This document shows, one piece after another, positions 2,049 to 39,198 of a DNA stretch of 64,000 bases. Every line of letters starts with the position of its first letter. Position 1 is the first letter of the stretch. The translations under genes and the position numbers were made by a program. The stretch spans positions 1,550,001-1,614,000 of the forward strand of contig JANJGN010000071.1 in the NCBI GenBank assembly GCA_026770705.1, in the 5' to 3' direction. The notes below the pieces were generated by a model that saw nothing but the letters and a program-made list of their open reading frames with translations, ran no database searches and was not told the DNA's origin. The stretch comes from Isurus oxyrinchus (taxonomy: Eukaryota).

Positions 2049-2309
2049 CTTAGCTGATGCTCGCTATCAATAACCAAGAGAGACCGACATTAGAACAAGC
2101 TGATTATTTATTGTAACAGAGGGCAGAGCACTAAATCCTTGCCTGCTCCCACAGCCACCTCCAGCTCTAGACTTACAGTTAACCAGTGGCCCACACTGTC
2201 CAGTGATTGGTCAGTACTGTCACATGGTTTATCCACTTGTATTCTCTTAAAGGTACCTGGCACTCCACATTATCACAGGAGGCCTATAGTACACACATAA
2301 CAGCATGTT

Positions 2310-2660
2310 TGCCTCCTCAGCACTGACCCTTCTACAGTGCAGCACTCCCTCATTACTGTCTCTCTAATAGTATAATGATCCCTCAGTAGTGCTCCTCCAA
2401 CATTGCACTGGTCAATCAGAACTGACGCTCTGACTGTGCAGTTTTACCTCAGCAGTAACCCTCCTACAGTGCAGCACTCCCACAGTACTGTCCCTCCTAC
2501 AGTGCAGCACTCCCTCAGGACTGACCCTCTGACAGTGCAGCACTCCCTCAGCACTGAACCTCTGGCAGTGCAGCACTCCCTCAGTACTGACTCTCTGACA
2601 GTGCAGCACTCCCTCAGTACTGACCCTCTGACAGTGCAGCACGCCCTCAATACTGAACTG
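2310..2660 (+). repeat. 33-bp minisatellite (ACAGTGCAGCACTCCCTCAGTACTGACCCTCTG)
   Basis: Tandem copies; produce spurious TVQHSLSTDPL ORFs. Confidence 0.9.
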
Positions 2661-2788
2661 AAGTGTCTGCCAGGATTACGGACTATGTGGTGAAAGAACC
2701 TACATTGACATCACACCTTTCACATTCTCAGTGTCTTTCAAAGTGCTTCACAGTCAGTGTAAGTTAACTGATCTGTATTTGTTTTTAG

Positions 2789-3070
2789 ACGCACCACGGA
2801 ATCTCTCAATTACTTCTCCAGATATGATGAACGCTTCATCGATCAATATAATTGAGGGGAATTCTGCAGTGATAATCTGCTCTGTCGAGAGCTTCCCAGC
2901 TTCTAACCTGATGTGGCGACATCTTAATGTCCCAATGAACAGAACAAGTTCCAACAATGAGCTGTGGTTGGTGATTCCTCACGTTACATCCAGGGACACT
3001 GGAGACTATCAGTGTGTGGCAGAGAATGAACATGGAGCAGTGGAGGGGTCCATAACCATTACTGTGGAAT
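2789..3070 (+). CDS. Gene A C2 Ig exon (activating-type Siglec-like; upstream exons not seen in window)
   Basis: 282 nt, ag|AC...T|gtgagt, open, near-identical to gene D repeats; upstream intron 2655-2788 matches 54490-54625. Confidence 0.82.
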
Positions 3071-4774
3071 GTGAGTGTACACAGACTTTAAAATTTCTCT
3101 CATCTCCGAACACATATACTCAGATGCTCTCCCACGCACACACACACAAGCACTCACAAATGTACAGACCCAAAGTGCATGCACACACACAATCCCACAC
3201 TCATGAGCACACAGAAAGACACACTCACACACAAACACAGTAGTACACACTTCCCTGTGAGTTACCTGACCTCCCTCAGTACTGCACTGGAGAGTTCTCC
3301 TGGATTCTGGGATATGTGTTCCCATTCATATTTATCGAAGAATATCCAAATTACAAAGTCTATTCCAGAAACTCACATGCACAAAGATTCCAACTGATAC
3401 TCCCCACCTCTCTGTGTATCTCTCTCCTCCTTTAAGAAGCTTCCTAATCCGTAACTCTTGCCTGTCCTAACTCCTCCTTATAATGCCCTGTGTCAAATTT
3501 TTTGTGTATCTGAGAGAAAGGGAGAGATACGGAAGTTTAGGAAGGGATTTCCTTTTAGTGAAGAGCTTACTTCTTTTTCTCACCTTTCCAGTGTTCAGTT
3601 TTGCCATCATGTCCAATGACCCTGTTTATAATGGGGGCATCCTATGTAAACGTCACACTGTCTTTACATCCTCCCATCAGTGGTGGCACTGTGGTGCTTA
3701 AGCTTGCACCTCCCAGCTTTTCAGCCAACTTCACTTCACAATTTGCTACATATGGTGTAAGTTCATCGAAATTAACATATATCAAACGGTAGATTTGATA
3801 ATACAGTTTATTGAAAGGTTCATCCGCGCTCTGGGAAGGGTTTACACTCTCCAGGAAGCAGGAATAGGCTGGATGTTGGGGAGTTCATCTTTTCCCAGAG
3901 AGTAGGGATACTCGGGAATGTGCTGTCAGTGGGTGTGGTGGTTGCTGTCTCTCTGTTGCCTTCAAGAGGGATCTGGAGTGGTTACTAACTGGGGGAGAGA
4001 TCATGGAAGCGGAGAATGATACAGCACAGGAGGAGGCCATTCAGCCCATTGTGCCTGTGCCAGGTCTTTCAATGTTCTATCCAATCAGATCCACTAACCA
4101 CCACTCCACTTTGCCCCCACCTTCTTCCTTCAAGTGTTTATCCAATTTCCCTTTTGAAAGTTCCTGTTGAATCTGCTTCCACCGCCCTTTCAGGCAGCAC
4201 CTTCCAGATCACAACAACTCGCTCTGTCAAAACAAATTCTCCTCATCTCCCCCTCCGGTTCATCAATCTGTGTCCCTCTGGTTACCGACCCTCCTGCCCC
4301 TTAAATACATTGATACTGTTCACCTCGACCACTCCCAGTGGGAGCGAGTTCCACATTCTCCCCTCTCTCTGGGTAAAGATTGGAACTGTTTATTAAGCGG
4401 GGGGTGTAAGTTCATGGGGGAGTCCATCTCGATCCTGCCTGATTTGCACACGCGTCCGAGATGGATTTCCACCCTGCACTAAACGTTTCCAGAATTTTCT
4501 ACAGCACAATCCTGTACACAGCGATGGAGAGAAACATTGGACAGGGAGTCCAACAGCACAATGATCCATTCTCACCAATGTTCCACGCTAAGGGGAAAGT
4601 TCCGATTGTCCACTCTTAGAGTGTTTACAATGAAAACATTCATTCCACATTGAATCCCAGTGGATGGGTCAATATTACAGCAAATGTTGCAGTGATATGA
4701 AGCTTGATTGTTCAGCCAGAGTGAGAGATTGAAAGCGGAGAGTCAGTGATGATTTCTTTCTGTGTGTTCTCTAG

Positions 4775-4914
4775 ACAGTGGAGGAGAGATTCTGCACGTG
4801 ATCCTGATCCTGGGAATACGAGCTGTGATATTCCTTGTGGCTGTGGTTATCACTATCGCTGGAGTCTGTGTCTGGGAGAGACAAACAGTGACAGGAAGTC
4901 GACAGACTGTTTGA
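4775..4914 (+). CDS. Gene A TM plus short tail exon with intramembrane Arg
   Basis: ctctag|AC; YSGGEILHVILILGIRAVIFLVAVVITIAGVCVWERQTVTGSRQTV*; phase matches the C2 exon; Arg codon 4819-4821; no Tyr motif in tail. Confidence 0.8.
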
Positions 4915-5044
4915 AGCTTTGTACAGCAACAATCTGGTCAGTCAGTGCGGACAAATAACGTGTGATGTTGGGTTAAATAGTAAAGAAACTGGTCAGTGTC
5001 CTGGTTAGAATCACCTTCGTATCAGAGAGGCATTCCAGCACAGT

Positions 5045-5635
5045 GGGAGCCCATTCAGCCCATTGAGTCCATGCTGTCTCTCTGTAGAGCAATCCAGTCA
5101 GTCCCATTCCCCCGCTCTATCCCTGTATCCCTGTGAGTTTATTTCCCCTCAAGTGTCCATCCAATTTCCTTTTGAAATCGTTCATCGTCTCCACTTCCAC
5201 CATCCTCGTAGGCAGCGAATTCCAGCTCATTACCACTCGCTGTGTAAAAAAGTTCCTTCTCACATCCCCCCTCTGCCCAAAACCTTCAATCTGTGTCCCC
5301 CAGTCCTTGTCCCATCAGCTAATGGCAACAGCTTGTCTTTGTCTACATTATCTAAACCCATCATCATCTTGTACACCTCGATCAGATCCCCCCTCAATCT
5401 CCTTTGCTCCAAGGAGAACAACCCCAGCTTCTCCAACCCAACCTTGTAGCTAAAATCCCTCATCCCTGGACCCATTCTGCTCAATCTCCTCCCCACCCTC
5501 TCAAGGACCCTCACTTCCTTCCCAAAGTGGGGAGACCAGAACTGGACACAATACTCTAGTTGTGACCTAACCAGAGCTTTATAAATGTTCAGCATAACCT
5601 CCCTGTGTTTGTATTCAATCCCTCGATTTATGAAA
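5045..5635 (-). mobile_element. CR1 LINE 3' fragment
   Basis: LVRSQLEYCVQFWSP..LGLFSLEQRRLRGDLIEVYK. Confidence 0.88.
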
Positions 5636-6329
5636 AGCTTATTCTTTCCATCAGCACAAACAGCAATTTCCAAGCGGACTCCCATCAGCAGACAGAGTGC
5701 AATGAAACATCGGCATGCCTGCTTCTTAATGTACGGAGAGAAACCTGGAACGAGAGATTCTCCTTCTTCTCCTCAGCAAGCTGAAACTTTTCCTTATACC
5801 TGGTGCTCCCCAGTCCTGCTGTGTGGACACATCATAACCACGGCATTGTCTGGCTGTGTGCAGCCAACATGGTCGAATAGGAATGAACAGAAATGTGACG
5901 TTGCTAAACTCTGTTCTCTGATTGGAATGTGCTTTCTGAATGCTGCACCTTTTTCATGCTGCGATAGATTGTAAGAAGCATTTGGGTTATGAATAAAATT
6001 ACATTGATTAACACAAGTGATTAAAATGCTCAGCCTGTTCTGTAGATACTTATGGATTAAAATTCTTATTTTGCTGCCAGATTCTTGGCTCAAAGACATT
6101 ACTTCATGTTGTCACTTTTTCCAGTCAGATGAATTCCTTTATAATGGAAATTTTCAATGTAAACACGTCACATTGCAGCTGCACACAATTGCCAGTAGGT
6201 GGTGTGATATCAAAGCTGTCTTGCTGCTCAGAAAGAGAGAGAAATATTCCTGATAAATGCATGAACTTCATGTGTGCATCAGACACTGACATCAGATGCA
6301 ATTTTGTGCAATTTGTGCAATGTATTTTA

Positions 6330-6680
6330 GACAGTGCAGCACTCCCTCAGTTTAGACCCTCCAGCAGTGCAGCACTCCCTCAGTTCAGACCCTCCAATGG
6401 GTGCAGCACTCTCTCAGTTTAGACCCTCCAACAGTGCAGCACTCCCTCAGTTCTGACCGGCCGACAGTGCAGCACTCCCTCAGTGCCAACACTCTGACAG
6501 TGCAGAACTCCCTCACAGCTGTCCCTCAAACAGAGCAGCACTCCCTCGCTGCTTATCCTCCATCAGTGCAGCACACCTCAATACTGACGCGCCAACAGTG
6601 CAGCACTCCCTCAGTACTGACCCTCTGACAGGGTAGCACTCCAACAATACTGACCCTCCGACAGTGCAGAACATGCTTAG
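6330..6680 (+). repeat. 33-bp minisatellite
   Basis: Tandem copies. Confidence 0.85.
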
Positions 6681-6859: not shown

Positions 6860-7002
6860 GCTACTTCCCCATTTTGTCTCACAGAGACACATCAACCCTT
6901 TCTCACTAAATACACAGAGGGGGCAGCACAGGAAGAGGTCATTCAGCCCAAGCAGAGCGTGTGGGCAGTTCCTCCCCAGGCGAGCAGTCGGACAGGTCCT
7001 GG
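6860..7002 (+). promoter_or_regulatory. Gene B putative promoter and non-coding exon
   Basis: Homologous to 12055-12195 and 59805-59945; ETS core ACTTCC; donor G|gtaagt. Confidence 0.45.
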
Positions 7003-7336
7003 GTAAGTAACGGAACGATTGGAATTCACTTCCACGACCAACACCGTCCTTTGTTGATGTTGTGACTTAATAAAGACAGATTCCAATGATTGATGCCTTT
7101 GAAAGATTTCTACTGATTATTGAGATCAGGGTGTGAGGCTCAAGTCTGTTGTACAGAAAATCTTTCTAGCTCAAGGGATGAGGGAAGTGCAGAGACATGA
7201 GCTTGGGGGCGTCCTGAGGTGGTGAAAGGTGCTATAGAAATGCAAGTCTTTCATTGTTTTTCTTTCTTAAAGCCTTGTAACTCTCTGCAGAGCAACTATC
7301 ATCCCACAGAGAATCAAATTAGTCTGTGAAGACATT

Positions 7337-7974
7337 GGGCTGAATTTCCAGCCTGTCGAGCGGGTGGGCCTGACCCAATCTCCAGCGGGCGGGGAGCCAA
7401 TCCCCACCGGAGAAGCGGGCCCCGCCGCCATTTTAAGTGGGCGTGCCAATTAAGGCCCACCCAGCGTGATGTCCGGCGGGAAGGGCTATGCCCTTCCTGT
7501 GTGGGCCGGGGGTGGGGGGTGGGTGGTGGGGACATTCCCCAAATGCAAGAGTGCGCTCTGTCACACATGCGCATGATAAAGCCCACATCACCCTGAGGCT
7601 TGGTGCTGCCTCAGGGAGATCGCTGAAAGGTTTTCAAACAATCAAAATAGAAAAATAAAAAAATCCTCAACATGTCCCCCTCACGTGACAATGTCACTCG
7701 AGATGGGACATGTTAATAAACTGCACCAAAACTTGAATAAACTCTTTTAAAACCGACATGAGTCCTCGTCCCGCCGGTGGATGAGGTTTCATGTTTTCTC
7801 TAGTTGTCGCTGGAGCTCCTGCCCTGCCCACCAGCATTAAGGTTAGACCGGCAGGTCGGTTCATTGTTTAAATGTTCCTGTCAATGGCTTCAATTGGCCA
7901 TTGACAGGTCGGCGGGCCCTCAGCTGATTTCACTGCACCCCTGTCTCCTGCTCACCGACAGTGAAACTCTGCCC
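7337..7974. mobile_element. Non-autonomous DNA transposon (PIF/Harbinger-like MITE)
   Basis: Termini GGGCTGAATTTC...GAAACTCTGCCC, 3-bp duplication ATT; empty site GACATTGTC in paralog C near 12517. Confidence 0.7.
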
Positions 7975-8093
7975 ATTGTCTAAAAGCAGTTCTGATCTCT
8001 GGAGAGCTGTCGGACAAGAGGTGAGGTCTCATTAACTCCTTTCTTTTTCACAGCTTGAGAGTGAGAAGCTGATGAAATATCTGCGAGTGGACA

Positions 8094-10936
8094 ATGATCT
8101 TACTTCCTCCTGTCACTTCTCCAAGGTAATATCATCGTCAGCTCGGACAGATTTATGGTTAATAGTCTTTGTAAAAGATCATTCTTATTGAGCTGTGATT
8201 GGGAACCGATTCAGCAGTGAGCCAGTGTACAAACTCACACCAATTCCCATTCACCCATCACCCCTGTGATCACTGATATACACTGACTCCCTGTCTGACA
8301 GCAACAGAAAATTAAAATCCAGGTCATCCTGTAGAAATCCCTCCAAAATTTTGCAACTCTCCCTATCCATGTTACCTCCTCCAGCCCATACCAACCTCCC
8401 TATCTCTGTAACATCTTCCAGCACATATATTACTCCCTACCTCTGTAACCTTGCCCTGCTCCTACAATCCTCCCTATCTCAGTAACCTCCTCCAGCCCCT
8501 ACCACTCTCCCTAACTCTATAACCAACTCCAGCCCCTATATCCTTCGCTATCTCTGTTAATTTCTCCAGCCCCTACAAACCTCCCTTTCTCTGTAACCTC
8601 ATCCACCATTACAACCCTCCCTATTTCTGTAATCTCCTCCAGTACCTACAACCCTCCGAGATCTCTGCACTCCTCCAATTCCAGCATCTTGACCATCCCC
8701 CGATTCCCAACATTCCATTATTGGCGGCCGTGCCTTCAGCTGCCTGGGCCCCGAGCTCTGGAATTCAAAATCAAAATTCAGGGATGAATAAACTCCAATA
8801 TTCCATTCCCTGAGAGGCCATGATTACATCACAGCAGCATTCAGAATAGACAGAGGGTCCAGCCCTCACACTTCTTGCACAGTTTCACCATAATGAAATG
8901 AATTAACTGAAAGGTAAACCGTCAGTGCAGAGAGATGAGATATTTACACAGTTTCCCTGTGTATCTTGTAGACACTGTGTTGGGTGGAAGACTGGCTTCA
9001 CTAAACAGGGTCCTGAGGACCATGAGCCAATGTAGAATGAACTTGTCCACTCCTGTGTCCAGGATTCTCTTCCATCCATTGTGAAAACTTGGGGAGTTCC
9101 TTGTGTGTCCTGTAGATGGTCCACACTGCAGCCACTGTGCCCCAGTGATGGAAGGGGTGGATATCGAGTCTAGTGAAGCTACAAAACATCCAGAGTTAAA
9201 TATTGATATTTCTCTCCCCAGTTGGACTGTCACAAGAGTGGAAAGGTGACACTCCACGAGAGGTGACAGCGCAGGAATATTCGTGTGTACAGATTCCATG
9301 TCATTACAGCTACCCATCGTGTCTGGAAAACCAACTGCAAATTGGAATCTGATTTAATGACAAAGTCTTGATAAGATTCTTTATAGCCTTTCACTCCAAG
9401 GATAATAATCGCGAGTTACCACTGTTCCAGCATCGGACCCGGCTGTCTGGAGACCTGAAAGATAGTGACTGTTCCCTGATTATAAACAACATCAGACGGG
9501 AAGATGCAGGACCTCATTTTTTCAGCATAAAATTTGACAATGGTCCGAGCCATAACTATTACCCTGCAACCCGGCTTCACATTTCTGGTATGTGCGGTGT
9601 TATAATTACTCAACAATCCACATTCAACACTCAATGGGAATGAACACAAACTCTGACGTTTACATAATAACACTGTTATGACATGGCAGGTGATGTGTGC
9701 CAAGTGGAGAGAATCCACAAAGGGAACTTGGCCAAGCATAATTTCCAACTACACACCCCCTTGAAGGCAACAATCCCAATAAATCTTAAATGGAAATGGG
9801 AATCCGGCAAGGTTACTGCAGCACCCACTTGACAGTGTAATTCCAAAGTCTTTTAACACACCTTTAAGTACTGGAGCAGCAAAAGTGAACAGAAACGTTT
9901 TACCCAAGGCTGCTTCACCTACTGTACCTTTCAAGAAATTCATGTCCCCCTCCCACATAACATTCCATCCTTCTTTATGTTGGTTTCTCTCTCTCCAATG
10001 TATAAAATCCCATTGTTGCACCTTTCTTGGGAAATACACTTTTCCCAAAATATAAAAATCTTTCATGTTGTCAATATGGCCCATTCCTTTTGGGAAGAAT
10101 ACACATAATAACCTTGCCCTGGTTATCTTGTTAATTATAAACACCCAACTACCCTTTGACAATCAAACATTCTCTTTACTGATCTAAAATTTCATTTACA
10201 GCTTTTCTGTGGAACCCTCATCCTAGCTTGTCCATCCCCATTTCAGAAGTCTGCTTTGCACCAAACTCTATTGATAATTTTAACCTCATAGTTGATCTGA
10301 CTCAAATTCAATTAAATCAGACCCACAGACGGAACCATCCACATTCATTCCCATAAGCCGACAATATTATTCTGAAAAATATCATAGTTTCATCACAACA
10401 TAAAACACAGTTTAGTATAACGCAGAGTCTGATTCTCAATAACCTGGTGATAGCTTCCATTCAGTCCAAAAGCAACCTCTAATACTCACTTTAATATCAA
10501 TGATTAAATGTATTGAATGTGTCCATCAATGTTATCAGGTCATCCACTCCCATCTATCTCTAATCTTAAGGCTGTGATTTCTATTTGAACTGATGCTTCA
10601 CGTTATATTTCTCTAAAAGGATCCATTCTCTGTCTGTTAGATTTCACAGATAAACCCACGATATTCCCTGCTGAAATTATTGCAGGAAAGCGTGTGGATG
10701 TAAGCTGCACCTTCAACACAACGTGCAATGGAACAGCAGCACCTGTCTTAACCTGGGACACTCCCACTGACGTACCTGGATCAGTCTCAAACACTGTAAC
10801 TCAGCATGGTGTCACTCTGACCTATACTTCTGTTCTGACCCTGATCCCACACTCAAACACCACGGACACACTCTCAGCTGCAGAGTGAGATATCCATCTG
10901 TTTCATCGGAGCGGACCCTCGTACTAACTGTGCAAG
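8094..10936 (+). pseudogene. Gene B: truncated Siglec-like pseudogene (leader 8094-8125, V 9222-9587, D2 10641-10936)
   Basis: 8-nt deletion in leader, TGA at 9350-9352 in V, essential Arg replaced by Ser (FFSIK), 1-nt deletion in D2; no C2 or TM exon before the gene C 5' flank. Confidence 0.88.
9674..10397. mobile_element. Solo LTR-like insertion in gene B intron
   Basis: TGTTATGA...TCATCACA ends, near 4-bp TSD (ACAC/ACAT), absent from paralogs C and D; related to 37768-38658 and 60462-61275. Confidence 0.6.
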
Positions 10937-11149
10937 GTAAGAACGGACACCCTTCATTATACATTCGCTGGAACAGTCTAGATGACGCACAGCCGGATCC
11001 CATAGAAAGGTATTCTGATGACAATCAGATAATCTGTTTTTTAAAGAAAATGGTGACCAGAATACAATTAATAACAGTTTCTGAACATTAACATAGGGGC
11101 TTTTATGTCCAGCCAAGGGGCTGATAGAGCAGAGCAGGAATCGCAATGT

Positions 11150-11815
11150 ACTCACCCCCTGACAGTGCAGCACTCCCTCAGTACTGACCCTCTGACAGTG
11201 CAGCACGCCCTCAATACTGAACCTCTGACAGTACAACACTCCCTCAGTACTGACCCTCCGACAGTGCAGCACTCCCTCAGTACTGACCCTCTGACAGTGC
11301 AGCGCTCTCTCAGTACTGACCCTCCAACAGTACAACACTCCGTCAGTACTGACCCTCCGACAGTGCGGCACACCCTCAGGACTGACCCACCGACAGTGCA
11401 GCACTCCATCAGTACTGACCCTCCAACAGTGCAACAATTCCTCAGTACTGTCCCTCTGACAGTGCAACACTCCCTCAAAACTGTCTCTCCGACAGATTAG
11501 CACTCCCTCAATACTGTCCCTCTAACAGTGTAGCACTCCCTCAGCACTGACCTTCCGAGAGCGCAGCACCCCCTCAATACTGACCCTCTGACAGTGTAGC
11601 ACTCCCTCAGTACTGATCCTCCGAAAGTGCAGCACTCCCTCAGTACTGTCCCTCTGACAGTGTAGCACTCCCTCAGTACTGACCCTCCGACAGTGCAGCA
11701 CTCCCTCAGTACTGTCCCTCTGACAGTGTAGCACTCCCTCAGTACTGACCCTCTGACAGTGCAGCACTCGTTCAGTCCTGACCCTCTGACAGTGCAGCAC
11801 TCCCTCAGTACTGAC
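11150..11815 (+). repeat. 33-bp minisatellite
   Basis: ~20 tandem copies. Confidence 0.9.
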
Positions 11816-12638: not shown

Positions 12639-15600
12639 ATGATTGGAAAATCTTACTTCCTCCTGTCACTTCTCCAAGGTAATATCATCGACAGCTCGGT
12701 CAGATTTATGGTTAATAGCCTTTGTAAAAGATCATTCTTATTGAACTGTGATTGGGAACCGATTCAGCAGTGAGCCAGTGTACAAACTCACACCAAGTCC
12801 CATTCACCTATCAACCCTAAACTATCTGACTCCTGGTCCTACAACATCTCAAACTTAAAATTCACATCTCTTTGTTCAAATGCATCCATTGCCTCACACT
12901 GCCTCCTTATCTCTGTAACCTCCTGCAACTCTCCCAACCAACGTCCCAGATCTCTGTGTTACTCCAATTCCGGCCTCTTGACAATCCCCCGATTCCCATC
13001 ACTCCAATACTGGCGGCCGGACCTTCAGCTGCCTGGGGCCTGAGCTCTGGAATTCACTCCCTAAACCTCGGGGATGTAGGAGATCAGAGGGTTTCATTTT
13101 ACTGAAAATCACCACGACCACATCACAGCTGCAGTCAGAATAGACAGAGAGTCCAGCCCTCGCACTTCCTGCACAGTTTCACCATAGCAACCACAATAAG
13201 GAAGTAAAATAACTGAAAGTTAAACCGAAGCTCAACCAGTCAGTGTAGAGAGATGAGATATTTACACAGTTTCCCTGTGTGTCTTGTAGACACTGTGTTG
13301 GGTGGAAGACTGGCTTCACTAAACAGGGTCCTGAGGACCATGAGCCAATGTAGAATGAACTTGTCCATTCCTGTGTCCAGGATTCTCTTCTATCCATTGT
13401 GAAACACTGGGGAGATCCCTGTGTGTCCTGTAGATGGTCCACACTGCAGCCACTGTGCCCCAGTGATGGAGGGGGTGGATATCGAGTCTAGTGGATCTAC
13501 AAACCATCCAGAGTTAAATATTGATACTTCTCTCCCCAGTTGGACTGTCACAAGAGTGGAAAGGTGACAGTCCACGAGAGGTGACAGCGCAGGAAGGTTC
13601 GTGTGTACAGATTCCATGTCATTACAGTTATCCAGCACATTTGGAAAATCAACCGCGAGGTGAAGTCTGGTTTAATAATGAGAATCAGATTCCCTGGGCT
13701 CCCATTGCCTTTCACTCCAAGGATCACAGTCACGAGTTACCATGGTTCCACCATCGGACCCGGCTGTCTGGAGACCTGAAAGATGGCGACTGTTCCCTGA
13801 TTATAAACAACATCAGATGGGAAGATGCAGGACCTTATTTTTTCAGAATAAAATTTGACAATGGTCGAGCCATAACTATTACCCTGTAACCCAGCTTCAT
13901 GTTTCTGGTAAGTGCTGTGTTATAATTACTCAACAATTCACATTCAACACTCAATGGGAAATAACACAAAGTGTGACGTTTACATATTAACACAAAACAC
14001 AGCTTATTATAACACACTGTCTGATTCTCAATAACCTGGTGATAGCTTCCAGTTCAGTCCGAAAGCAACGTCTAATACTCACTTTAATATCAATGATGAA
14101 AAGCATTAACTGTATTATCAGGTTATCCACTCCCATCAATCTCTCCTGTCCTGTTTAAAAGTCTGACGTATCGATAAAAGAAAGATGTGCATTTCTGCAG
14201 CGCAATTTACCACCTCAGGAGGATCCAAATCCATTCACAGCCAATGAAATTATTCCTGAATTGTAGTCACAGATGTTAAACACAGCAGGCAGTTTGTGCA
14301 CAGCAAGATCCAACAAACACAATGTAATAAATCACCCAGATCACTGAGGAAATGAGAAGCCAGTGAACTCAAACCTCTGGTCTGATGAAGAGTCATACGG
14401 ACTCGAAACGTTAACCCTGTCTTCCTCTCCACTGATACTGTCAGACCTGCTGAGTCTTTCCAGCAATTTTTGTTTTTGTTTCAGATTTCCAGCATCCGCA
14501 GTATTCTGCTTTTAACTCCAATCTCTGGTCTGAGCCTCTTCTCTCATCCAGTGTTCTCAATTCACATGTCTCGGAGTGAACGTGTATTAAGCTGAGAGAC
14601 AGAAACACTACTGCCAAAGAGCAAGAAAATCTTTCCTGATCATTGTAACCTCTCAGTTCTGATATCATCCTTGTAAAAGTGCTTTCTCTTGTGGGACTGT
14701 GGTTTCTATTTGAACTGATGCTTCACATTATATTTCTCTAAAAGGATCCATTCTCTGTCTGTTAGATTTCACAGATAAACCCACGATATTCCCTGCTGAA
14801 ATTATTGCAGGAAAGCGTGTGGATGTAAGCTGCACCTTCAACACAACGTGCAATGGAACAGCAGCACCTGTCTTAACCTGGGACACTCCCACTGATGTAC
14901 CTGGATCAGTCTCAAACACTGTAACTCAGCATGGTGTCACTCTGTCCTATACTTCTGTTCTGACCCTGATCCCATCACTCAAACACCACGGACACACTCT
15001 CAGCTGCAGAGTGAGATATCCATCTGTTTCATCGGAGCGGACCCTCGTACTAACAGTGCAAGGTAATTACATACACCTTTCATTCTACATCAGCACTCCC
15101 TCAGCGCAGACCCTCTGACAGTGCAGCCCATTCTCAGTATCCACATTCTAAGGCCTCTCTAAGTGCTTCAAAGTCGATAGAAGTTAATTGATCTTTATTT
15201 GATTATTGCTGAATGAAGAGACAAGCTGTCTAAACTTTACATCTCGCACACACCATTCTCCATGGCAACACCTCCACCTATCAGAGTCCACTTGCCAACC
15301 AATCAGCACTCTCTTCCCATTAAGTATAAATTGTTGTTCACTTTCTGTTGATAATCCTGTGAACGGGCTTCTTGATTCCTGCCATGACATCTGAATGTCC
15401 AAATGAACAGAACAAGTTCCAACAATGAGCTGTGGTTGGTGATTCCTCATGTTACATCCAGGGACACTGGAGACTATCAGTGTGTGTCAGAGAATGAACA
15501 TGGAGCAGTGGATGGGTTCATAACCATCAGTGTGGAACGTGAGTTACACAGACTTCAACATCTCTCTCAGATTTGAACACTACACAAACACCATCGAACA

Positions 15601-17346
15601 TACACACCTAAATAGACACGTGCAGACACACATATATGACCACACACAAAGACACACTCACACACAAACACTAACACTCACTCCCTCATGGGTTACCTGA
15701 CCTCCCTCAGTACTGCACTGGAGGTTGGCCTGAATTCTGGGATTTGTGTTCCCATTCATATTTATGGAAGAATATGGAAATTACTATTACAGACACTCAG
15801 ATGCATAGAGGCTCTCACAGATACTCTCTGCGTCTCCAACTCTCTCTCTCCTTTTAAGAAGCTTCCTGAAACCTAACCCTTTGACGAATCACCAACCTAA
15901 TTCTTCCTTATCTGATTCTGTGTGATTTTCTTTGTGTATCTGAGAGTAAGAGAGAGTTGGAGAGGTTTAGGAAGAGAATTCCTGCTGGTGAAAAGCTTAC
16001 ATAATGTTCTCACTATTTCCGTGCACATAATTCCCATTATGTGCAATGCCCCTGTTTATAATGATGACTGCCTATGTAAACGTCACGCTGTAGTTACAGC
16101 CTCCCACCAGTGGTGGCATTGTAGCCCTTCATCCTTGTGTTTCCCAGCTTTCCCAGCAACTCCACTTCCCAGTTTGCTACACAAGCTGTGAGTTCATCGG
16201 AATTCAATTATTTCTCAAACGGTGGATTTGATGTCATTTTATTGAAAACTTCCTCAGCGCCTCCCTGAAGGGTTTACACTCTCCGGGTGGCAGGAATAGG
16301 CTGGATGTTGGGGAGTTCATCTTTTCCCAGAGAGTAGGGATCCTTGGGAATGTGCTGTCAGTGGGTGTGGTGGTTGCTGTTTCTCTGTCACCTTCAAGAG
16401 GGATCTGGAGTGGTTACTGACTGGGGGAGAGATCATGGAAGCGGAGAATGATACAGCACATGAGGAGGCCATTCAGCCCATTGAGACTGTGCCAGGTCTT
16501 TCAATGTTCTATCCCATCAGATCCACTAACCACCACTCCACTTTGCCCCGATCTTCCTCCTTCAAGTGTTTATCCAATTTCCCTTTTGAAAGTTCCTATT
16601 GAATCTGCTTCCACCGCCCTTTCAGGCAGAACCTTCCAGATCACAACAACTCGCTCTGTCAAAACAAATTCTCCTCATCTCCCCCTCCGGTTCGTCAATC
16701 TGTGTCCCTCTGGTTACCGACCCTCCTGCCCCTTAAATACATCGATACTGTTCACCTCGACCACTCCCTGTGGGAGCGAGTTCCACATTCTCCCCTCTCT
16801 CTGGGTAAAGATTGGACCTGTTTATTAAGCGGGGGGTGTAAGTCCATGGGGGAGTCCATCTCGATCTTGCCCGATTCGCACACGCGTCCGAGATGGATTT
16901 CTACCCTGCACTAAACGTTTCCAGAATTTTCTACAGCACAATCCTGTACACAGCGATGGAGAGAAACATTGGACAGGGAGTCCAACAGCACAATGATCCA
17001 TTCTCACCAATGTTCCACGCTAAGGGGAAAGTTCCGATTGTCCACTCTTAAAGTGTTTACAATGAAAACATTCATTCCACATTGAATCCCAGTGGATGGG
17101 TCAATATTACAGCAAATGTTGCAGTGATATGAAGCTTGATTGTTCAGCCAGAGTGAGAGATTGAAAGCGGAGAGTCAGTGATGATTTCTTTCTGTGTGTT
17201 CTCTAGACAGTGGAGGAGAGATTCTGCACGTGATCCTGATCCTGGGAATACGAGCTGTGATATTCCTTGTGGCTGTGGTTATCACTATCGCTGGAGTCTG
17301 TGTCTGGGAGAGACAAACAGTGAAAGGAAGTCGACAGACTGTTTGA
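12639..17346 (+). pseudogene. Gene C: disrupted activating-type Siglec-like gene (leader 12639-12678, V 13540-13907, D2 14766-15062, C2 remnant ~15385-15538, Arg-TM 17207-17346)
   Basis: 1-nt deletion near V exon end gives TAA at 13887-13889; 5' half of C2 exon replaced by repeat-like sequence; leader, D2 and TM exons intact. Confidence 0.8.
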
Positions 17347-18680
17347 AGATTTGTGCAGCAACAGTCTCATCATGGAACAGAAGGACGGCATTCGGCCCAT
17401 CGACTCCATGCTGTCTCTCTGTAGAGCAATCCAGTCAGTCCCATTCCCCCGCTCTATCCCCGTATCCCTTCAAGTTTATTTCCCCTCAAGTGTCCATCCA
17501 ATTTCCTTTTGAAATCGTTCATCGTCTCCGCTTCCACCATCCTCGTAGGCAGCGAGTTCCAGCTCATTACCACTCGCTGTGTAAAAAAGTTCCTCCTCAC
17601 ATCACCCCCTGTCCAAATCCTTCAATCTGTGTCCCCCAGTCCTTGTCCCATCAGCTAATGGCAACAGCTTCTCTTTGTCTACCTTATCTAAACCCATCAT
17701 CATCTTGTACACCTCGATCAGATCCCCCCTCAATCTCCTTTGCTCCAAGCAGAACAACCCCAGCTTCTCCAACCCAACCTTGTAGCTAAAATCCCTCATC
17801 CCTGGACCCATTCTGCTCAATCTCCTCCCCACCCTCTCAAGGACCCTCACTTCCTTCCCAAAGTGAGGAGACCAGAACTGGACACAATACTCTAGTTGTG
17901 ACCTAACCAGAGCTTTATAAATGTTCAGCATAACCTCCCTGTGTTTGTTCTCAATCCCTCCATTTATGAAAAGCTTATTCTTTCCATCAGCACAAACAGC
18001 AATTTCCAAGCGGACTCCCATCAGCAGACAGAGTGCAATGAAACATCGGCATGCCTGCTTCTTAATGTACGGAGAGAAACCTGGAACGAGAGATTCTCCT
18101 TCTTCTCCTCAGCAAGCTGAAACTTTTCCTTATACCTGGTGCTCCCCAGTCCTGCTGTGTGGACACATCATAACCACGGCATTGTCTGGCTGTGTGCAGC
18201 CAACATGGTCGAATAGGAATGAACAGAAATGTGACGTTGCTAAACTCTGTTCTCTGATTGGAATGAGCTTTCTGAATGCTGCACCTTTTTCATGCTGCGA
18301 TAGATTGTAAGAAGCATTTGGCTTATGAATAAAATTACATTGATTAACTCAAGTGATTAAAATGCTCAGCCTGTTCTGTAGATATTTAAAGATTAAAATT
18401 CTTATTTTGCTGCAAAATTCTTGGCTCAAAGACATTACTTCATGTTGTCACGTTTTCCAATCAGATGATTTCCTCTGTCCATCTTTATAATAGAAATTTC
18501 CAATGTAAACATGTCACATTGTAACTGCACACTCTTGCCAGTGGGTGGTGTGATATCAAAGCTGTCTTGCTGCTGAGAAACAGCGAGAAATATTCCTGTT
18601 GTGTGCATGAACTTCATGTTAGCATGAGACACAGGCATCAGATGCAATTTTGTGCAATTTGTACAATGTTCTTTAGACAG
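15130..18680 (+). repeat. Segmental duplicate of ~2715-6330 (3' half of activating gene)
   Basis: Colinear high identity including introns, TM exon, LINE insertion and AATAAA (5992-5997 and 18328-18333). Confidence 0.9.
17370..17972 (-). mobile_element. CR1 LINE 3' fragment (co-duplicated with 5045-5635)
   Basis: Same peptide and same junction with downstream unique sequence. Confidence 0.88.
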
Positions 18681-19125
18681 CGCAGCACTCCCTCAGTACT
18701 GACCCTCCAACAGCGCAGCACTCCCTCAGTTCAGACCCTCCTACAGTGCAGCACTCCTTCAGATCAGACCCTCCGACAATGCAGCACTCCCTCAGTTCAA
18801 ACCCTCCGACAGTGCAGCACTCCCTCAGTTCAGACCCTCCGACTGTGCAGCACTCCCTCAGTTCAAACCCTCAGACAGTGCAGCACTCCCTCAGTTCAGA
18901 ACCTCCGACAGTGCAGCACTCTCTCAGTTCAAACCATCCGACAGTGCAGCACTCCCTCAGTTCAAACCCTCCGACAGTGCAGCTCTCCCTCAGTTCAAAC
19001 CCTCCGACAGTGCAGCACTCCCTCAGTTCAGAGCCTCCGACAGTGCAGCACTCCCTCAGCTCAGACCCTTCGACAGTGCAGCACTCCCTCAGTACTGAAC
19101 CTCCGACAGTGCCGCACTACCTCAG
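18676..19125 (+). repeat. 33-bp minisatellite
   Basis: Tandem copies. Confidence 0.9.
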
Positions 19126-21879
19126 TTCTTCTCCGCCGATGCTGCCAGACCTGCTGAGTTTTTCCAGGTATTTCTGTTTCTGTTTCTGTTTTGGATTTCC
19201 AGCATCTGCAGTTTTTTTGCTTTTAGTGCTGGGCAGTTCCTCAGCAAGGATTCGGGCCACAAAACATTGCGAGTGCTGTGGGTCTGCGCCACGATTTAGA
19301 GAGCTGTGCTTGGCACGCCTATTCTAGTCCCAGTCCAGTGTGGTGGGGACAGCCTGGCAGTCCTGGGTTGGTGGTGCCCAGCATGGTGTGCAGGACGTGG
19401 TCAGTCCCTCACACACGTCGGTCCTGGGGGTGGGTGGCTTGATACTAGGCCGCAGGTGGCACAATCCCAGTCAGGGGAGGCATCTGCAGCCTGTCAGTGG
19501 GGAGCAGGTAATATAGAGAGTAGGGGTGGGGGTGGGAATCGAGGGGGGCCGGTGGTCTCTGTAAGTCACAGTACAATGGGCCTCTAGTTGGAGAGAGGTC
19601 AGGTCTACATGGGGCATTGGGATGTCAACATCAGACAGTCTAGGGAGGAGGACTGGGATGTCAACCCCGAACACAATAAGATCAAGGATTAGAGAGGAAG
19701 GGAAGAGACTGATTGGAAGGAGGGGAATGTGCACATTATGCTCCTCCAGCACGATGGGAGGGACTGTGTTGGTTACGGGGGTTGGGGGGGAGTGAAGTGG
19801 GAGGGGATAGAAGCTTACCTGGTGGTATTGCCTCAGCCTCACCCTTTTTCAAGCTGATCCAATGTCGCAGTTGAAGAATAAGCTACAAAACAAATTGGCA
19901 GGGGAGGTCTCCCAGGGCCTGTGGGAGACATCACCCACTGCATCTTCGGCCTGTTTGAAGGGGCACCCGAACAATTCCGGCTTTTCCAAATGATGAGGAA
20001 GACACAGCTGCACCCCGAGTCCCCTACTGGGGTTCCAGAAGGTTGCAATAGTGCTGCGAGGGACTCATGGGCTCCACAGTGACTCCCTAATTAGCGACTG
20101 GAAGGTTTATGTTCATTTATCTTTATTATCCGTTCATATTGAGCAATGGAGCTCCTGATTTGTCACCTTTCTGTACCTCGTCCAATGCTTCTGTTATCAG
20201 GACTTCCACATCGATGTGAAAGAGCCATGATGATAGCAGACAGTCGCACAATGGGAATGGCACTAGGCCAGTGATCCAGAGGCCCAGGTGAATGCTTTGA
20301 AGGCACGGGTTCAAATCCCTCCACGGCAGCTGGAGGAATTTCAATTCGATTAATCAATAAATTTAATTGATTGATACATTTTTTTCTTATTCATTTCAGG
20401 GATGTTGGTGTCGCTGACTAGGCCAGTATTTGTTGCCCATCCCCAATTGCCTTTGAGAACATCTGGATATCTGAGTTAGGATCAGGAGTAGGTCACTCAG
20501 TCCCTCGAACCTGCTCCGCCATTCAGTAAGATCATGGCTGATCTGATTGTCACCTCAACCTCACGTTTTTGTTTTGGATTTCCAGCATCCACAGTTTTCT
20601 TTGTTTTTATAGAGAAATGCAAGTCCTCTTTGTCTTTCACTTGATCCTCTAAGGTGTCTGTTGATTAACCAGCCTCTCGGTGTATGATGTAGGCCTGGTT
20701 ATAAACTGTTAGAAGGATCAAATATCAAAAGTGCTTTGGCTGACAGTCAAACCGATTGTGCATTCGGAGAGATTAGATACGGTCTGCGCACAATGACTCC
20801 AGTCTCTGGCACTGACTGCCGCCTGGGGTCTCCCTTCCACATAACACTCACAACTTGCATTTACACAGCGCCTCTGACATTGCAAAATGTCCCAACCCAC
20901 ATTACCGGAGCGTAAATCAGAGAGAAGTCTAACACTGAGTCACATATGGAGATATTAGGGATAGGTGACCAAAAGCTTGGTCAAAGATGTCAGTTTTTAA
21001 GGAGCGTCTTAAAGGAGAGAGAGAGAGAGAGGCAGAGAGGTTAAGGGAGGGTATTCCGGAGCTCAGGGCCCCAGGCAGCTGAAGGCACGGCCACCAATGG
21101 TGGAGCGATGGGAATCAGGGGGACCCGGGAGATGCAGGAATTTCAGAGATTTTGGAGGAACATCGGGACCGGAGGAGGTGTTCTCCTGCTCCATATCTCT
21201 CTCTCTCTTCCTCTCATCCACTCCTCCTCTCCCTGTCTCTCTCTCTCCTACTCTTCCGCTCAATTGCCCTCTCTCCCAATCTTTCTCTCCTCTCTCCCTT
21301 TTCCTGTCTCTCTCCCTCTCTCTCCCCTGTCTCCTTCTCCCACTCTGTATCTCTCCCTCTCTCTCACACTATTTTTGTACCTTTCGCTCACTCTGTAACT
21401 CTCCCTTTCCTGTTAATTTCTCTCTCTTGGACAATCTCTCTTCCCTTTTCACTTTCCCTCACTCTGCATCTCTTTAATTTCTCCCTCTGTCACTCTCTCC
21501 CACCTATGTTCTTTCCCTTTCACCCCTCCCCGTCCCACTCTCTGTCTCTCTCTTCCAATCCCTCCCTCCCCCATTCCATCCCTCTCTCCGACTCTCGACT
21601 CCCAGCCTCTCTTTAACCCACTCCCAGGCTGGATCAGTCTCCCTCTCACTATTCCCGGCGTGGGTTACATTTAAAATTCCTGTGGGGATATGTTCACTTC
21701 CTTGGAATTGCCTCTTCCCAGCTTTGCAAAAAAAGGGGGCGGGGGGGGTTCGATTTCAAACATGCCTCCTGAGTATAACCGAGACAGACTGCCACTGAAA
21801 TCAGCTTGAAATCAGAAAACTTTCTGTGGAAGAAACGAGCAGGGAGAAACCTTAAAATAAGGAATGAATTTCCACCTAC

Positions 21880-22690: not shown

Positions 22691-22754
22691 CGGAGTGTTG
22701 ACCGACGTTATGGGACTGAATTCCCTGGAGTGAGACACAGACCAGAGATTTAGG

Positions 22755-23610
22755 TAGGGTTGTTCCGGCTGGAGGAGGTTACAGAGATAGAGAGGGTTGT
22801 AGAGGCTGTAGGAGGTAACAGAGATAGGGAGGGTTCTAGAGGCTGTAGGAGGTGACAGAGATAGGGAAGGTTGTAGGGGCTGTAGGAGGTTACAGAGATA
22901 GGGAGGTGAGTAGGGGCTGTAGGAGGTTAGTGAGATGGGGGGGGTTGTGGGGGCTGGAGGAGGTTACAGAGGTAAGGAGGGTTGTAGAGGCTGGAGGAGG
23001 TTACCAAAATAGATACTGCTGTAGGGGCCACAGTAGGTTACAGAGATAGGGAGAGTTATAGTGTGGAGAGGACGTTATAGAGTTCATGAGCATTGTAGGG
23101 GCTGGAGGAGGTTACAGTGATTCTGAGGGTCGTGGGGCCTGGAGGAGGTTACAGAGATAGGGAGGGTTGTAGGGTCTGGAGGAGGTTACAGAGATAGGGA
23201 GGGTTGTAGGGTCTAGAGGAGGTTACAGTGATCATGAGGGTTGTGGGGCCTGGGGGAGGTTACAGAGATAGGGAGGTTTATACGGGCTGGAGGAGGTTAC
23301 AGAGATAGGGAGGGTTGTAGGGGCTGGAGGAGGTTACGGAGATAGGGAGTGTTGTAGGGGCTGGAGGAGGTAACAGAGATAGGGACAGTTGTAGGGGCTG
23401 GAGGAAATTACAGAGATGGGGATTGTTGTAGGGACTGGAGGAGGTTACAGATATAGGGAGGGGTGTAGGGGCTGGAGGAGGTTACAGAGATAGGGAGGGT
23501 TGTAGCGGCTGGAGGAGGTTACAGAGATAGGGAGGGTTGTAGGGGCTGGAGGAGTTTACAGAGATAGGGAGGGTTGTACGGGCTGGAGGAGGTTACAGAG
23601 ATAGGGAGTG
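22755..23610 (-). repeat. 37-bp minisatellite (CTGTAACCTCCTCCAGCCCCTACAACCCTCCCTATCT)
   Basis: Tandem copies; also 8360-8660 and 26260-26510 on the plus strand. Confidence 0.9.
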
Positions 23611-37164: not shown

Positions 37165-38760
37165 CACCTAGGCAGGTGGAGATTATTCCATCACACTCCT
37201 GACCTGTGCCTTGAGGTTGATGGACAGGCTTTGGGGAGTCAGGAGATGAGTTACTCACCACAGGATTCCCAGCCTCTGGCCTGCTCTTGTAGTCACAGTG
37301 TTTATATGGCTAGTCCAGTTCAGTTTCTGGTCAACGTTAACCCCCAGCGTGTTGAGAGTGGGGGATTCAGCAATGGTGATGCCATTGGACATTAATGGGA
37401 GATGGATATATTCTCTCTGGTTGGAGATGGTCATTGCCTGGCACTTGTGTGGCATGAATGTTACTTGCCACTTGTCAGGCCAAGCCTGGATATTGTCAAG
37501 GTCTTGCTGCATTTGGACATGGACTGCTTCAGCATCTGATGAGTCATGAATGATGTTGAACGTTGTGCAATCATCAGCGACCTTCCATAATTCTGACCAT
37601 CTGATAGAATGAATGTCATTGATGAAGCAGCTGAAGATGTTTGGGCCTAGGACACTACACTGAGCAACTCCTGCAGTGATATCCTGGAACTGAGATGATT
37701 GACCTCCAACAACCACAACCACCTTCCTTTGTACTTGGTATGAATCCAATGAGTGGAGAGTTTTCCCTGTGACATGACATGGCAGATGATGTGTGCTTGG
37801 TGCTCCAAATCCACAAGGGAAAATTGGTCATGCTATCACAATAGTTTTGCAATTTGTATTTATTATAAGAAGCGTGCACTGAATTCAGGAGTAATGAGAT
37901 GACCACAACCTTTAGAGATTTTAAAAATTGGATTAAGATATTTATTAACAAAATAAAAGATTTCAAGCACAGACATAATACCACAGTTAGTTACAGCTAA
38001 AATATATTCTCAAATTCCTAATTAACCTGACTCCCAGTTACAGAGCCCGTTTAATGCAACAGTCGAAAATAAGATTTTAGATTAAAAACAAATCCAGTGA
38101 GTTAACACAGCACACACTTGACAGTGGAATTCTAAATGGATTTCTCCAACTTTATTTACTGAACATAACAGACTTATGCACAAATGCCTGGAGGCTTCTT
38201 CAAGCCTGTTTCACACACTCCTGTTAGATCTTACATGGCCCCAACATAGTCTTTCATTCTCCTTTATACATGTTTCTCTCTCTTTGATGTAAATTCTTTG
38301 GAACTGTACCTTTCCCATAATATAAACTTTCATGTTGCCAATATTGTCAATGAAGTTTGGGTAAAATTAAAAAAAACTCCTTAGCTTTGCTTATTGGGCT
38401 TGTCCTAAACAGACCAACATCCCTTTGAAATCAAAACAACCCCTTCACACCTTACATGTTAACACAGCCTCCATGTGTTCTCATTAGCATTTCAAGTACA
38501 TTTCTACATCTAGCTTCTTTTGATAATCTCAAGCTTGCAGTCTACCTGACTCCAGATGTAATTAAACCACACAGACAAATCCATCTACACTCACACTCAT
38601 AAACCTACTTTAAAACAAACCAGGAAAATATTAAGCAAATTATTATACTTTCGTACCACCCCTGATTCCCATTGACTCCAGTTATGCTCGGGCTCCTAGA
38701 TGCCACACTCGGTCAAATGCAGCCATGATGTCAAAGGCAGTCATTCTCGTCTCACCTTGT
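37165..38760 (-). mobile_element. CR1/L2-type LINE RT fragment split by a solo LTR (37768-38658)
   Basis: ITAGVAQCSVLGPNIFSCFIND..ADDCT..QQDLDNIQAW; LINE sequence resumes after the insertion. Confidence 0.78.
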
Positions 38761-38949: not shown

Positions 38950-39198
38950 TCAGTTTTTCTGGAACCTGATCTGTGCGTATTCCGTGTCCTCGCTCCTGTG
39001 CACAGTCCTGTCACCGCCGGGCAGCTTTGAAAAGTTGATGTTGGCGTAGAAAAGCTCATCTGGTTTGTCGGAGTTCCCATGTCCAACATCGCCTCCCACT
39101 GGACCTTCAGAGAGACCCCGGGGAGCTGGGGTCTCCCCCTCACTAGTTGTGTCTCTGGTTGTGTTCCGGGGCTCAGTAATCAGCACGTTCTGTTTACC
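38950..39198 (-). CDS. Gene D terminal exon with ITIM (LFYANI) and ITSM (TEYAQI)
   Basis: ctctgtag|GGT; ...DELFYANINF...EDTEYAQIRFQKN*, the motif arrangement of CD33-related Siglec tails. Confidence 0.88.
   Translation of the reverse strand, partial: GKQNVLITEPRNTTRDTTSEGETPAPRGLSEGPVGGDVGHGNSDKPDELFYANINFSKLPGGDRTVHRSEDTEYAQIRFQKN

Follow-up and report, generated by a model that had tools for sequence, protein, structure and literature searches.

An arginine-containing transmembrane exon ends an intact CD33/MAG-like Siglec gene within a large paired array of Isurus oxyrinchus

What kind of receptor ends in the arginine-containing transmembrane (TM) segment encoded at 4775-4914 (+ strand), and which signalling adaptor might it use? 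Positions refer to the window, the whole 64,000-nucleotide stretch of Isurus oxyrinchus DNA analysed here (G000:C71:1550001-1614000), unless a contig is named. A preliminary description had read, from an acceptor at 4775 and in the phase set by a C2-set exon, a hydrophobic segment of about 26 residues with one Arg, followed by a stop, and both the frame and the TM character were supported. The acceptor (...TTCTCTAG, ending immediately before 4775) has the top pyrimidine tract (16/19) among the 16 AGs in 4690-4810, and the second C2 Ig exon of the gene at 2789-3070 (+; 282 nt, AG/GT ends, phase 1, open frame, GTGAGT donor) is joined to it in frame as ...ITVE-Y-SGGEILHVILILGIRAVIFLVAVVITIAGVCVWERQTVTGSRQTV, followed by the TGA at 4912-4914. 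The terminal exon encodes a short stalk, the helix of about 26 residues with Arg345 (codon CGA, 4819-4821) and an 11-residue tail without tyrosine. A 19-residue Kyte-Doolittle maximum of 2.95, together with the AlphaFold2 model of a close homologue (P0003), in which a single helix (residues 228-262) runs across the segment, supports membrane insertion. The ORF track missed the exon, as had been pointed out; the cause is its stop-to-stop frame of 53 aa, which makes the term 'hidden' correct though trivial. No donor bypassing the stop codon was found in 4775-4960.

The proposed splicing is backed, beyond the clean acceptor and the in-frame junction, by a 674-nt contig of run X7 that joins 3069 directly to 4775, exactly as predicted. 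This run carries a different organism code, its RNA origin is a guess, the match begins at 2918, as it does in paralogues with half a C2 exon, and a 1-nt deletion at 4803 is found in the same run; the contig therefore shows use of these splice sites within the family rather than expression of the 4775 copy itself. Contigs of 4 of the 23 listed runs, all guessed to be RNA, were aligned over 2300-6400, and the depth in the TM bin compared with that in the preceding intron bin, each summed over paralogous contigs, was 11,863 vs 1,079, 253 vs 7, 85 vs 0 and 198 vs 0. With a homologous exon ending the Siglec models of nine elasmobranch species and the RNA-type junction contig, the exon at 4775-4914 is confirmed as real rather than a chance reading.

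The signal, V and first C2 exons (L011) are found a short way before the window, at G000:C71:1546944-1546983, 1547877-1548245 and 1549561-1549857. All five coding exons, the splice sites (canonical throughout) and the start codon of the gene ending at 4914 are intact, and the assembled protein is an open frame of 375 aa comprising signal, V, C2, C2, TM with Arg345 and the 11-residue tail. Among named proteins, the closest are Siglec-like Carcharodon carcharias models with 86-90% identity across V-C2, and these end in the same exon. Pfam V-set, Ig_CD22 and C2-set_2 matches were obtained on the exons of the window, in the type I order of an N-terminal V-set followed by C2-set. For P0003, the top PDB sequence matches were CD33, MAG and Siglec-5 (E 1e-26), with bit scores of 97 for CD33 and 90 for MAG, and the best fold-search match was again CD33 (E 2e-18); Siglec-15 (E 8e-11, against 1e-26 for CD33) fell outside the top PDB matches. 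The essential F-strand Arg is present within the motif GPYFFR in the 375-aa gene, is aligned to that of CD33 in P0003, and its motif is kept in 39 of the 45 intact V exons of the array described below. The gene is thus a CD33/MAG-like Siglec, with a V-C2 ectodomain carrying the essential V-domain Arg, and sialic-acid binding may be expected of its product. The unusual cysteines of Siglecs (B-E intra-sheet and V-C2 inter-domain) likewise align with those of CD33 in P0003, and would form the B-E and V-C2 disulfide bonds in the shark protein.

Downstream of the terminal exon, a stretch of 3' UTR containing polyadenylation hexamers (5810-6038, +) shares homology with an ITIM gene in the same window, over the stop codon and 3' UTR of the latter (38962-38733, -); identity is 80% over 169 nt, and the match is also seen in a local alignment. 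This homology suggests that the Arg-TM exon was placed ahead of the former 3' end of an ITIM gene. The inhibitory-type partner runs from 59372 to 38950 (-). Its ectodomain exons at 42090-59372 (-) comprise signal (59372-59333), V (56201-55836), C2 (55464-55168) and then 12 tandem C2, 11 of which were assembled into the open frame, and are followed by an uncharged TM exon (41179-41275, -), a first cytoplasmic exon (40218-40299, -) and a last exon (38950-39198, -) with an ITIM (LFYANI) and an ITSM (TEYAQI). Over 331 ectodomain residues it is 87% identical to the activating-type gene, so that linked genes with similar ectodomains end either in an ITIM tail or in a short tail with a basic TM residue, as paired receptors do. 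The 12 tandem C2 exons (42090-54489, -) are about 90% identical to each other, and the 12-C2 gene is repeated 45 kb away (C71:1633848-1650815) at about 99% identity.

Two further genes of the window are damaged. A paralogue fragment at 6863-10944 (+) has a V exon with a stop codon, a C2 exon with a frameshift and no TM exon. The second, at 12639-17346 (+), consists of signal (12639-12678), V (13540-13907), C2 (14766-15062), half a C2 (15386-15538) and an Arg-TM exon (17207-17346), the last having been described beforehand as the duplicate of 4775-4914. The single protein change reported between the two, T to K, was found again; the genome holds more than 200 copies rather than two, and the gene of this duplicate is frameshifted. 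It is likely a pseudogene, since its V exon (368 nt) is out of frame and its second C2 has kept just the 3' half. This half-C2 relic has kept its donor, and no open in-frame acceptor was found among the 14 AGs tested; one RNA-type contig appears to use the donor, which would yield an aberrant transcript. Besides the dead state of the duplicate, the preliminary description had overlooked the ITIM-bearing partner, how large the array is and the occurrence of the exon in a SLAM-like gene.

In the explanation that we favour, the Arg-TM exon anchors in the membrane, and supplies with a short tail, an intact CD33/MAG-like Siglec that stands beside ITIM-bearing near-twins, and the conserved Arg of the exon would dock onto the aspartate pair of an FcR-gamma dimer, making the receptor the activating half of a paired-receptor system; activation through ITAM and Syk could follow, as could defence against microbes taking advantage of the inhibitory twins. 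We consider this activating, FcR-gamma-docked receptor the probable one. That the receptor uses an ITAM adaptor of some kind is very likely from its sequence; given such an adaptor, FcR-gamma or zeta is the better candidate, and DAP12 a distinctly weaker one. The earlier claim of an activating-type, spliced terminal TM exon with a conserved Arg held, and each of the outcomes named beforehand as fatal to it (orthologous exons without the Arg, no splicing, no TM) came out in its favour, whereas the opinion that its adaptor is undecidable from sequence was too flat.

Counted down to the first residue with a charge on the cytoplasmic side, the Arg has a spacer of 18 residues in 14 of 17 rows, and the Asp of L099, by the same count, one of 15, which places the receptor Arg three residues above the Asp, the offset of Fc-alpha-RI and Fc-gamma, with depth counted from sequence only. 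L099 is one of three zeta/gamma-family TM exons (PF11628) in G000: L098 best matches CD3-zeta and L099 FcR-gamma, and the peptide of L100 equals that of L099. The FcR-gamma-like identification in this genome rests on the TM exon of L099/L100, and a 2014 survey reported no FcR-gamma in the shark genomes it covered (PMC4016189). L099 (C1723) and L100 (C1648) lie on separate small contigs. According to PMC1440944, Fc-gamma partners carry Arg in the N-terminal TM segment, with the Fc-alpha-RI Arg at position 3 and the Fc-gamma Asp at position 6, and the corresponding statements in PMC13107469 and PMC8102735 agree with the Arg/FcR-gamma rules. A complex predicted from the TM peptide and a pair of L099 TMs spoke neither for nor against assembly (ipSAE 0.08, mark 0.34).

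The strongest competitor is the same activating Siglec coupled to DAP12 (or DAP10) in the manner of mammalian Siglec-14, -15 and -16, which we hold to be possible, at appreciably lower probability. Siglec-14 couples to DAP12 although its TM residue is Arg. Activating Siglecs are described as DAP12-coupled in PMC13358205, PMC13233462 and PMC6288428, and the shark Arg, preceded by about eight further hydrophobic residues, is ninth from the N-terminal end of its hydrophobic run, so its depth could be nearer position 9 if the helix sat differently. The DAP12 Asp and the KIR Lys are both at position 9 and DAP12 partners range from 7 to 12 (PMC1440944). In the same source, however, the type I partners of DAP12 carry a central Lys, Lys-to-Arg replacement lowers DAP12 assembly to 15%, and Lys/Arg swaps impair assembly, whereas the residue here is Arg, 18 residues from the cytoplasmic end and thus high in the bilayer. 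As regards DAP10, a single weak Pfam match in G000 (E 0.4) contains a stop and was rejected as spurious. The identity and depth of the Arg (18 vs 15) therefore lean towards FcR-gamma, though tentatively, because known activating Siglecs use DAP12.

Conservation of the Arg was assessed across species with a TM profile built from 5 of 21 homologues, in which the Arg is invariant. After 7,997 candidates were scored, the Arg was kept in all 21 matches, which come from Carcharodon, two Scyliorhinus, two Chiloscyllium, Hemiscyllium, Rhincodon, Mustelus and Hypanus and so span four elasmobranch orders, lamniform, carcharhiniform and orectolobiform sharks and the order of the stingray Hypanus, whose TM is only 34% identical. 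The TM Arg is conserved across species, and it is this, not the within-genome count, that supports it. Of the checks put forward in the preliminary description, the search for the Arg in other chondrichthyans was thus informative, while dN/dS was not so within the genome. Among 130 further representative proteins none exceeded 12 bits with the TM profile, and the homologues were all elasmobranch, which is weak evidence on their range. In their grouping the ectodomains follow lineage, not signalling type, those of Hypanus activating receptors falling with those of Hypanus inhibitory ones (P0103 left out), and a single clade of activating ectodomains was rejected by the AU test (p 2e-42; 9 vs 10 rows).

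Another rival is a non-signalling tether or decoy, in which the Arg would snorkel at the outer face and a shorter helix behind it would anchor the protein. The stretch of 18 residues following the Arg is by itself sufficiently hydrophobic (window mean 2.5), and some skate Siglecs (P0049, P0057-P0059) have a different, uncharged, short-tailed TM without a buried basic residue. Yet the Arg is invariant from sharks to ray while its flanking residues vary, and paired receptors are defined by just this combination of a short tail and a basic TM residue next to ITIM twins, which makes a tether improbable. A multi-V model from a catshark and C2-rich models from bamboo sharks, CD22-like or sialoadhesin-like, also terminate in the Arg-TM (among P0093, P0094-P0096, P0099 and P0101). 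A label of 'unrelated family' for P0094-P0096, P0099 and P0101 was dropped, and these were named CD22-like, CEACAM5-like or sialoadhesin-like; P0095 matched FCRL5, CEA and CD22.

The activating-type gene belongs to a paired array of hundreds of copies with ITIM/ITSM or Arg-TM ends. Exact patterns matched 218 Arg-TM-type exons across the genome, 213 of them with a CGN codon (reversed control, 0); the corresponding totals are 194 for uncharged TM exons and 187 for ITSM exons. Along 934 kb of C71, 15 Arg-TM, 24 uncharged-TM, 31 ITIM-exon and 47 V matches are interleaved in both orientations. A protein search for the Arg-TM exon, with 150 of 240 candidates scored, returned copies 96-100% identical on 14 contigs. 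Uncollapsed haplotypes as the source of the copies on C52 and C71 were rejected, 1 of 40 C52 loci matching the 934 kb of C71 at >=99.5% over 9 kb. The number of C2 exons varies from 0 to 12 across the array; in G000:C71:1110001-2044000, tandem V exons (two or three) occur in many genes and duplicated pairs of cytoplasmic and ITIM exons in several, and in one tail type LYANPQV replaces the canonical ITIM while the ITSM is kept.

The state of the activating copies was sampled in 55 of them, 40 being those that head the C52 list and 15 those found in the 934 kb of C71. V and C2 exons were intact in 20 and failing in 35; a half-C2 relic was present in 45 and a full second C2 in 9. For the 20 with intact V and C2, the signal exon lay beyond the 9 kb read in 14 and failed in 4, so that signal, V and C2 all passed within the 9 kb in just 2 of the 55 copies, the 4775 gene among them. 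The 45 intact V exons (23 activating, 22 inhibitory) encode 44 different proteins with a mean identity of 82% and variation concentrated in the loops, and the two classes are interleaved in their tree, which suggests that ectodomains were spread by duplication and gene conversion. In a crude pairwise count, no positive selection was seen on the V loops, pN/pS being below 1, loops included (0.212/0.342).

Within the genome, divergence from the majority was 0.0060 per site in the exon and 0.0055-0.0064 in the intron, and the Arg-TM copies show 14 distinct non-synonymous and 3 synonymous codon variants. The CpG of the Arg codon is changed in 1 of 51 copies, other exon CpGs in 5, 13 and 2 of 51, and intron CpGs in 4, 0, 1 and 6 of 52. 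Since the exon is no better conserved than the intron, the genomic copy count reflects recent duplication, and within-genome retention of the Arg was discarded as proof of selection. That the 4775 copy is an unexpressed passenger of segmental duplication, with few functional family members, would agree with this equality, with the mostly broken sampled copies, with the V-domain pN/pS below 1 and with the 0 reads tied specifically to this copy, but is most doubtful of all given its wholly intact exons, splice sites and start codon, its place among the two passing copies and a contig depth higher in exon bins than in unique intron bins in all four runs.

One pattern match lies far from the array, at 89.45 Mb of C21, and is a homologous terminal exon, 67% identical to the Arg-TM exon over 434 nt that include about 295 nt of the upstream intron. 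The V and C2 exons there match a Mustelus 'SLAM family member 9-like' protein (P0105; C2 68%) that itself terminates in this TM. A neighbouring V exon, which is intact, matches SLAMF6 and SLAMF5 (E 7e-7 and 0.003), and the best hits of the C2 exon are CEA/CEACAM; a SLAM label for the C21 gene is likely on these matches. The Isurus copy, with a stop in V and a Glu in the TM, looks decayed. In a tree of 43 columns with a midpoint root, both SLAM-linked TMs group together (100/99) within the shark Siglec TMs and away from that of the ray, which suggests that the TM exon moved before the two shark orders split, the direction, from Siglec to SLAM, being our inference. This region (L142-L146, G000:C21:89407546-89457545) holds two SLAM-like V-C2 genes; it is the downstream gene that terminates in the Arg-TM exon and whose V carries the stop. 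On small contigs there are many more distant C2 paralogues.

Primates are known to have paired Siglecs that undergo gene conversion (PMC5701461), and the Siglec-5/14 and Siglec-11/16 pairs resemble the shark genes in having a V-set and C2 ectodomain nearly common to an ITIM/ITSM gene and a short-tailed, basic-TM gene, in the homogenisation of ectodomains and in many null copies (PMC13358205, PMC5701461). They differ in number, the 15 Siglecs of humans including two pairs while the shark has about 200 + 200 signalling-end exons, and in adaptor, DAP12 there against a predicted FcR-gamma here; the shark TM exon predates the shark-ray split, and orthology with the primate pairs has no support. Fc-alpha-RI/CD89, NKp46, KIR2DL4 and the activating KIRs of macaques also have an Arg high in the TM helix and a short tail, and the macaque KIRs gained their TM by recombination (PMC8102735), but the ectodomains of CD89-type partners are not of Siglec type, and the QN motif one turn above the Arg of CD89 (PMC13107469) is absent in the shark. 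Siglec-15 is likewise activating, with a basic TM residue, and present in fish (PMC7226832), yet it has Lys rather than Arg, uses DAP10/12 and forms one conserved gene, not an expanded array of pairs; the same study, centred on teleosts, describes fish genomes as devoid of CD33-related inhibitory Siglecs. NCBI models of Carcharodon and Scyliorhinus named 'sialic acid-binding Ig-like lectin 12/13/14' or 'CD33-like' already include the exon, with the same C-terminal exon 82-93% identical. Their names are automatic, and most join the TM exon to the first C2, whereas the 4775 gene keeps a second full C2.

A wider reading, to which we give somewhat less than even credence, is of an elasmobranch paired-Siglec system, older than the shark-ray split and grown to several hundred genes in Isurus, that would signal in its activating arm through FcR-gamma and not DAP12. 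The Arg-TM exon would then be a portable activation cassette, set before what had been the 3' end of an ITIM gene, in use in bamboo-shark genes of CD22-like and sialoadhesin-like type and copied with its intron onto a SLAM-family gene before the lamniform/carcharhiniform split. An ITIM/ITSM and Arg-TM array in sharks and rays would put the paired-Siglec design at the base of jawed vertebrates, by descent or convergence, with a gene number more than ten times that of humans; coupling to FcR-gamma, if real, would break the Siglec-DAP12 rule, and one TM exon common to different receptor families would make exon shuffling of activating receptors traceable. The logic of paired receptors is already known; what is new is how old and how large the system is, the adaptor predicted for it and the sharing of the exon. 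Among the papers listed in searches of the open-access literature, none dealt with activating Siglecs of sharks, with their array or with the exon shared between families; PMC8455134 mentions Siglecs once.

The remainder of the window contains an isolated, divergent Siglec-like V exon (29817-29572, -), 28% identical to the array V, which lies beside a retroelement-like frame and seems to end in a stop. LINE reverse-transcriptase fragments occur, for example, at 405-1585 and 37258-37827. Intronic minisatellites with a unit of about 33 nt are found at 2447-2640, 6330-6660, 11148-11815, 18676-19139 and 39380-40009, and one with another unit at 22743-23608.
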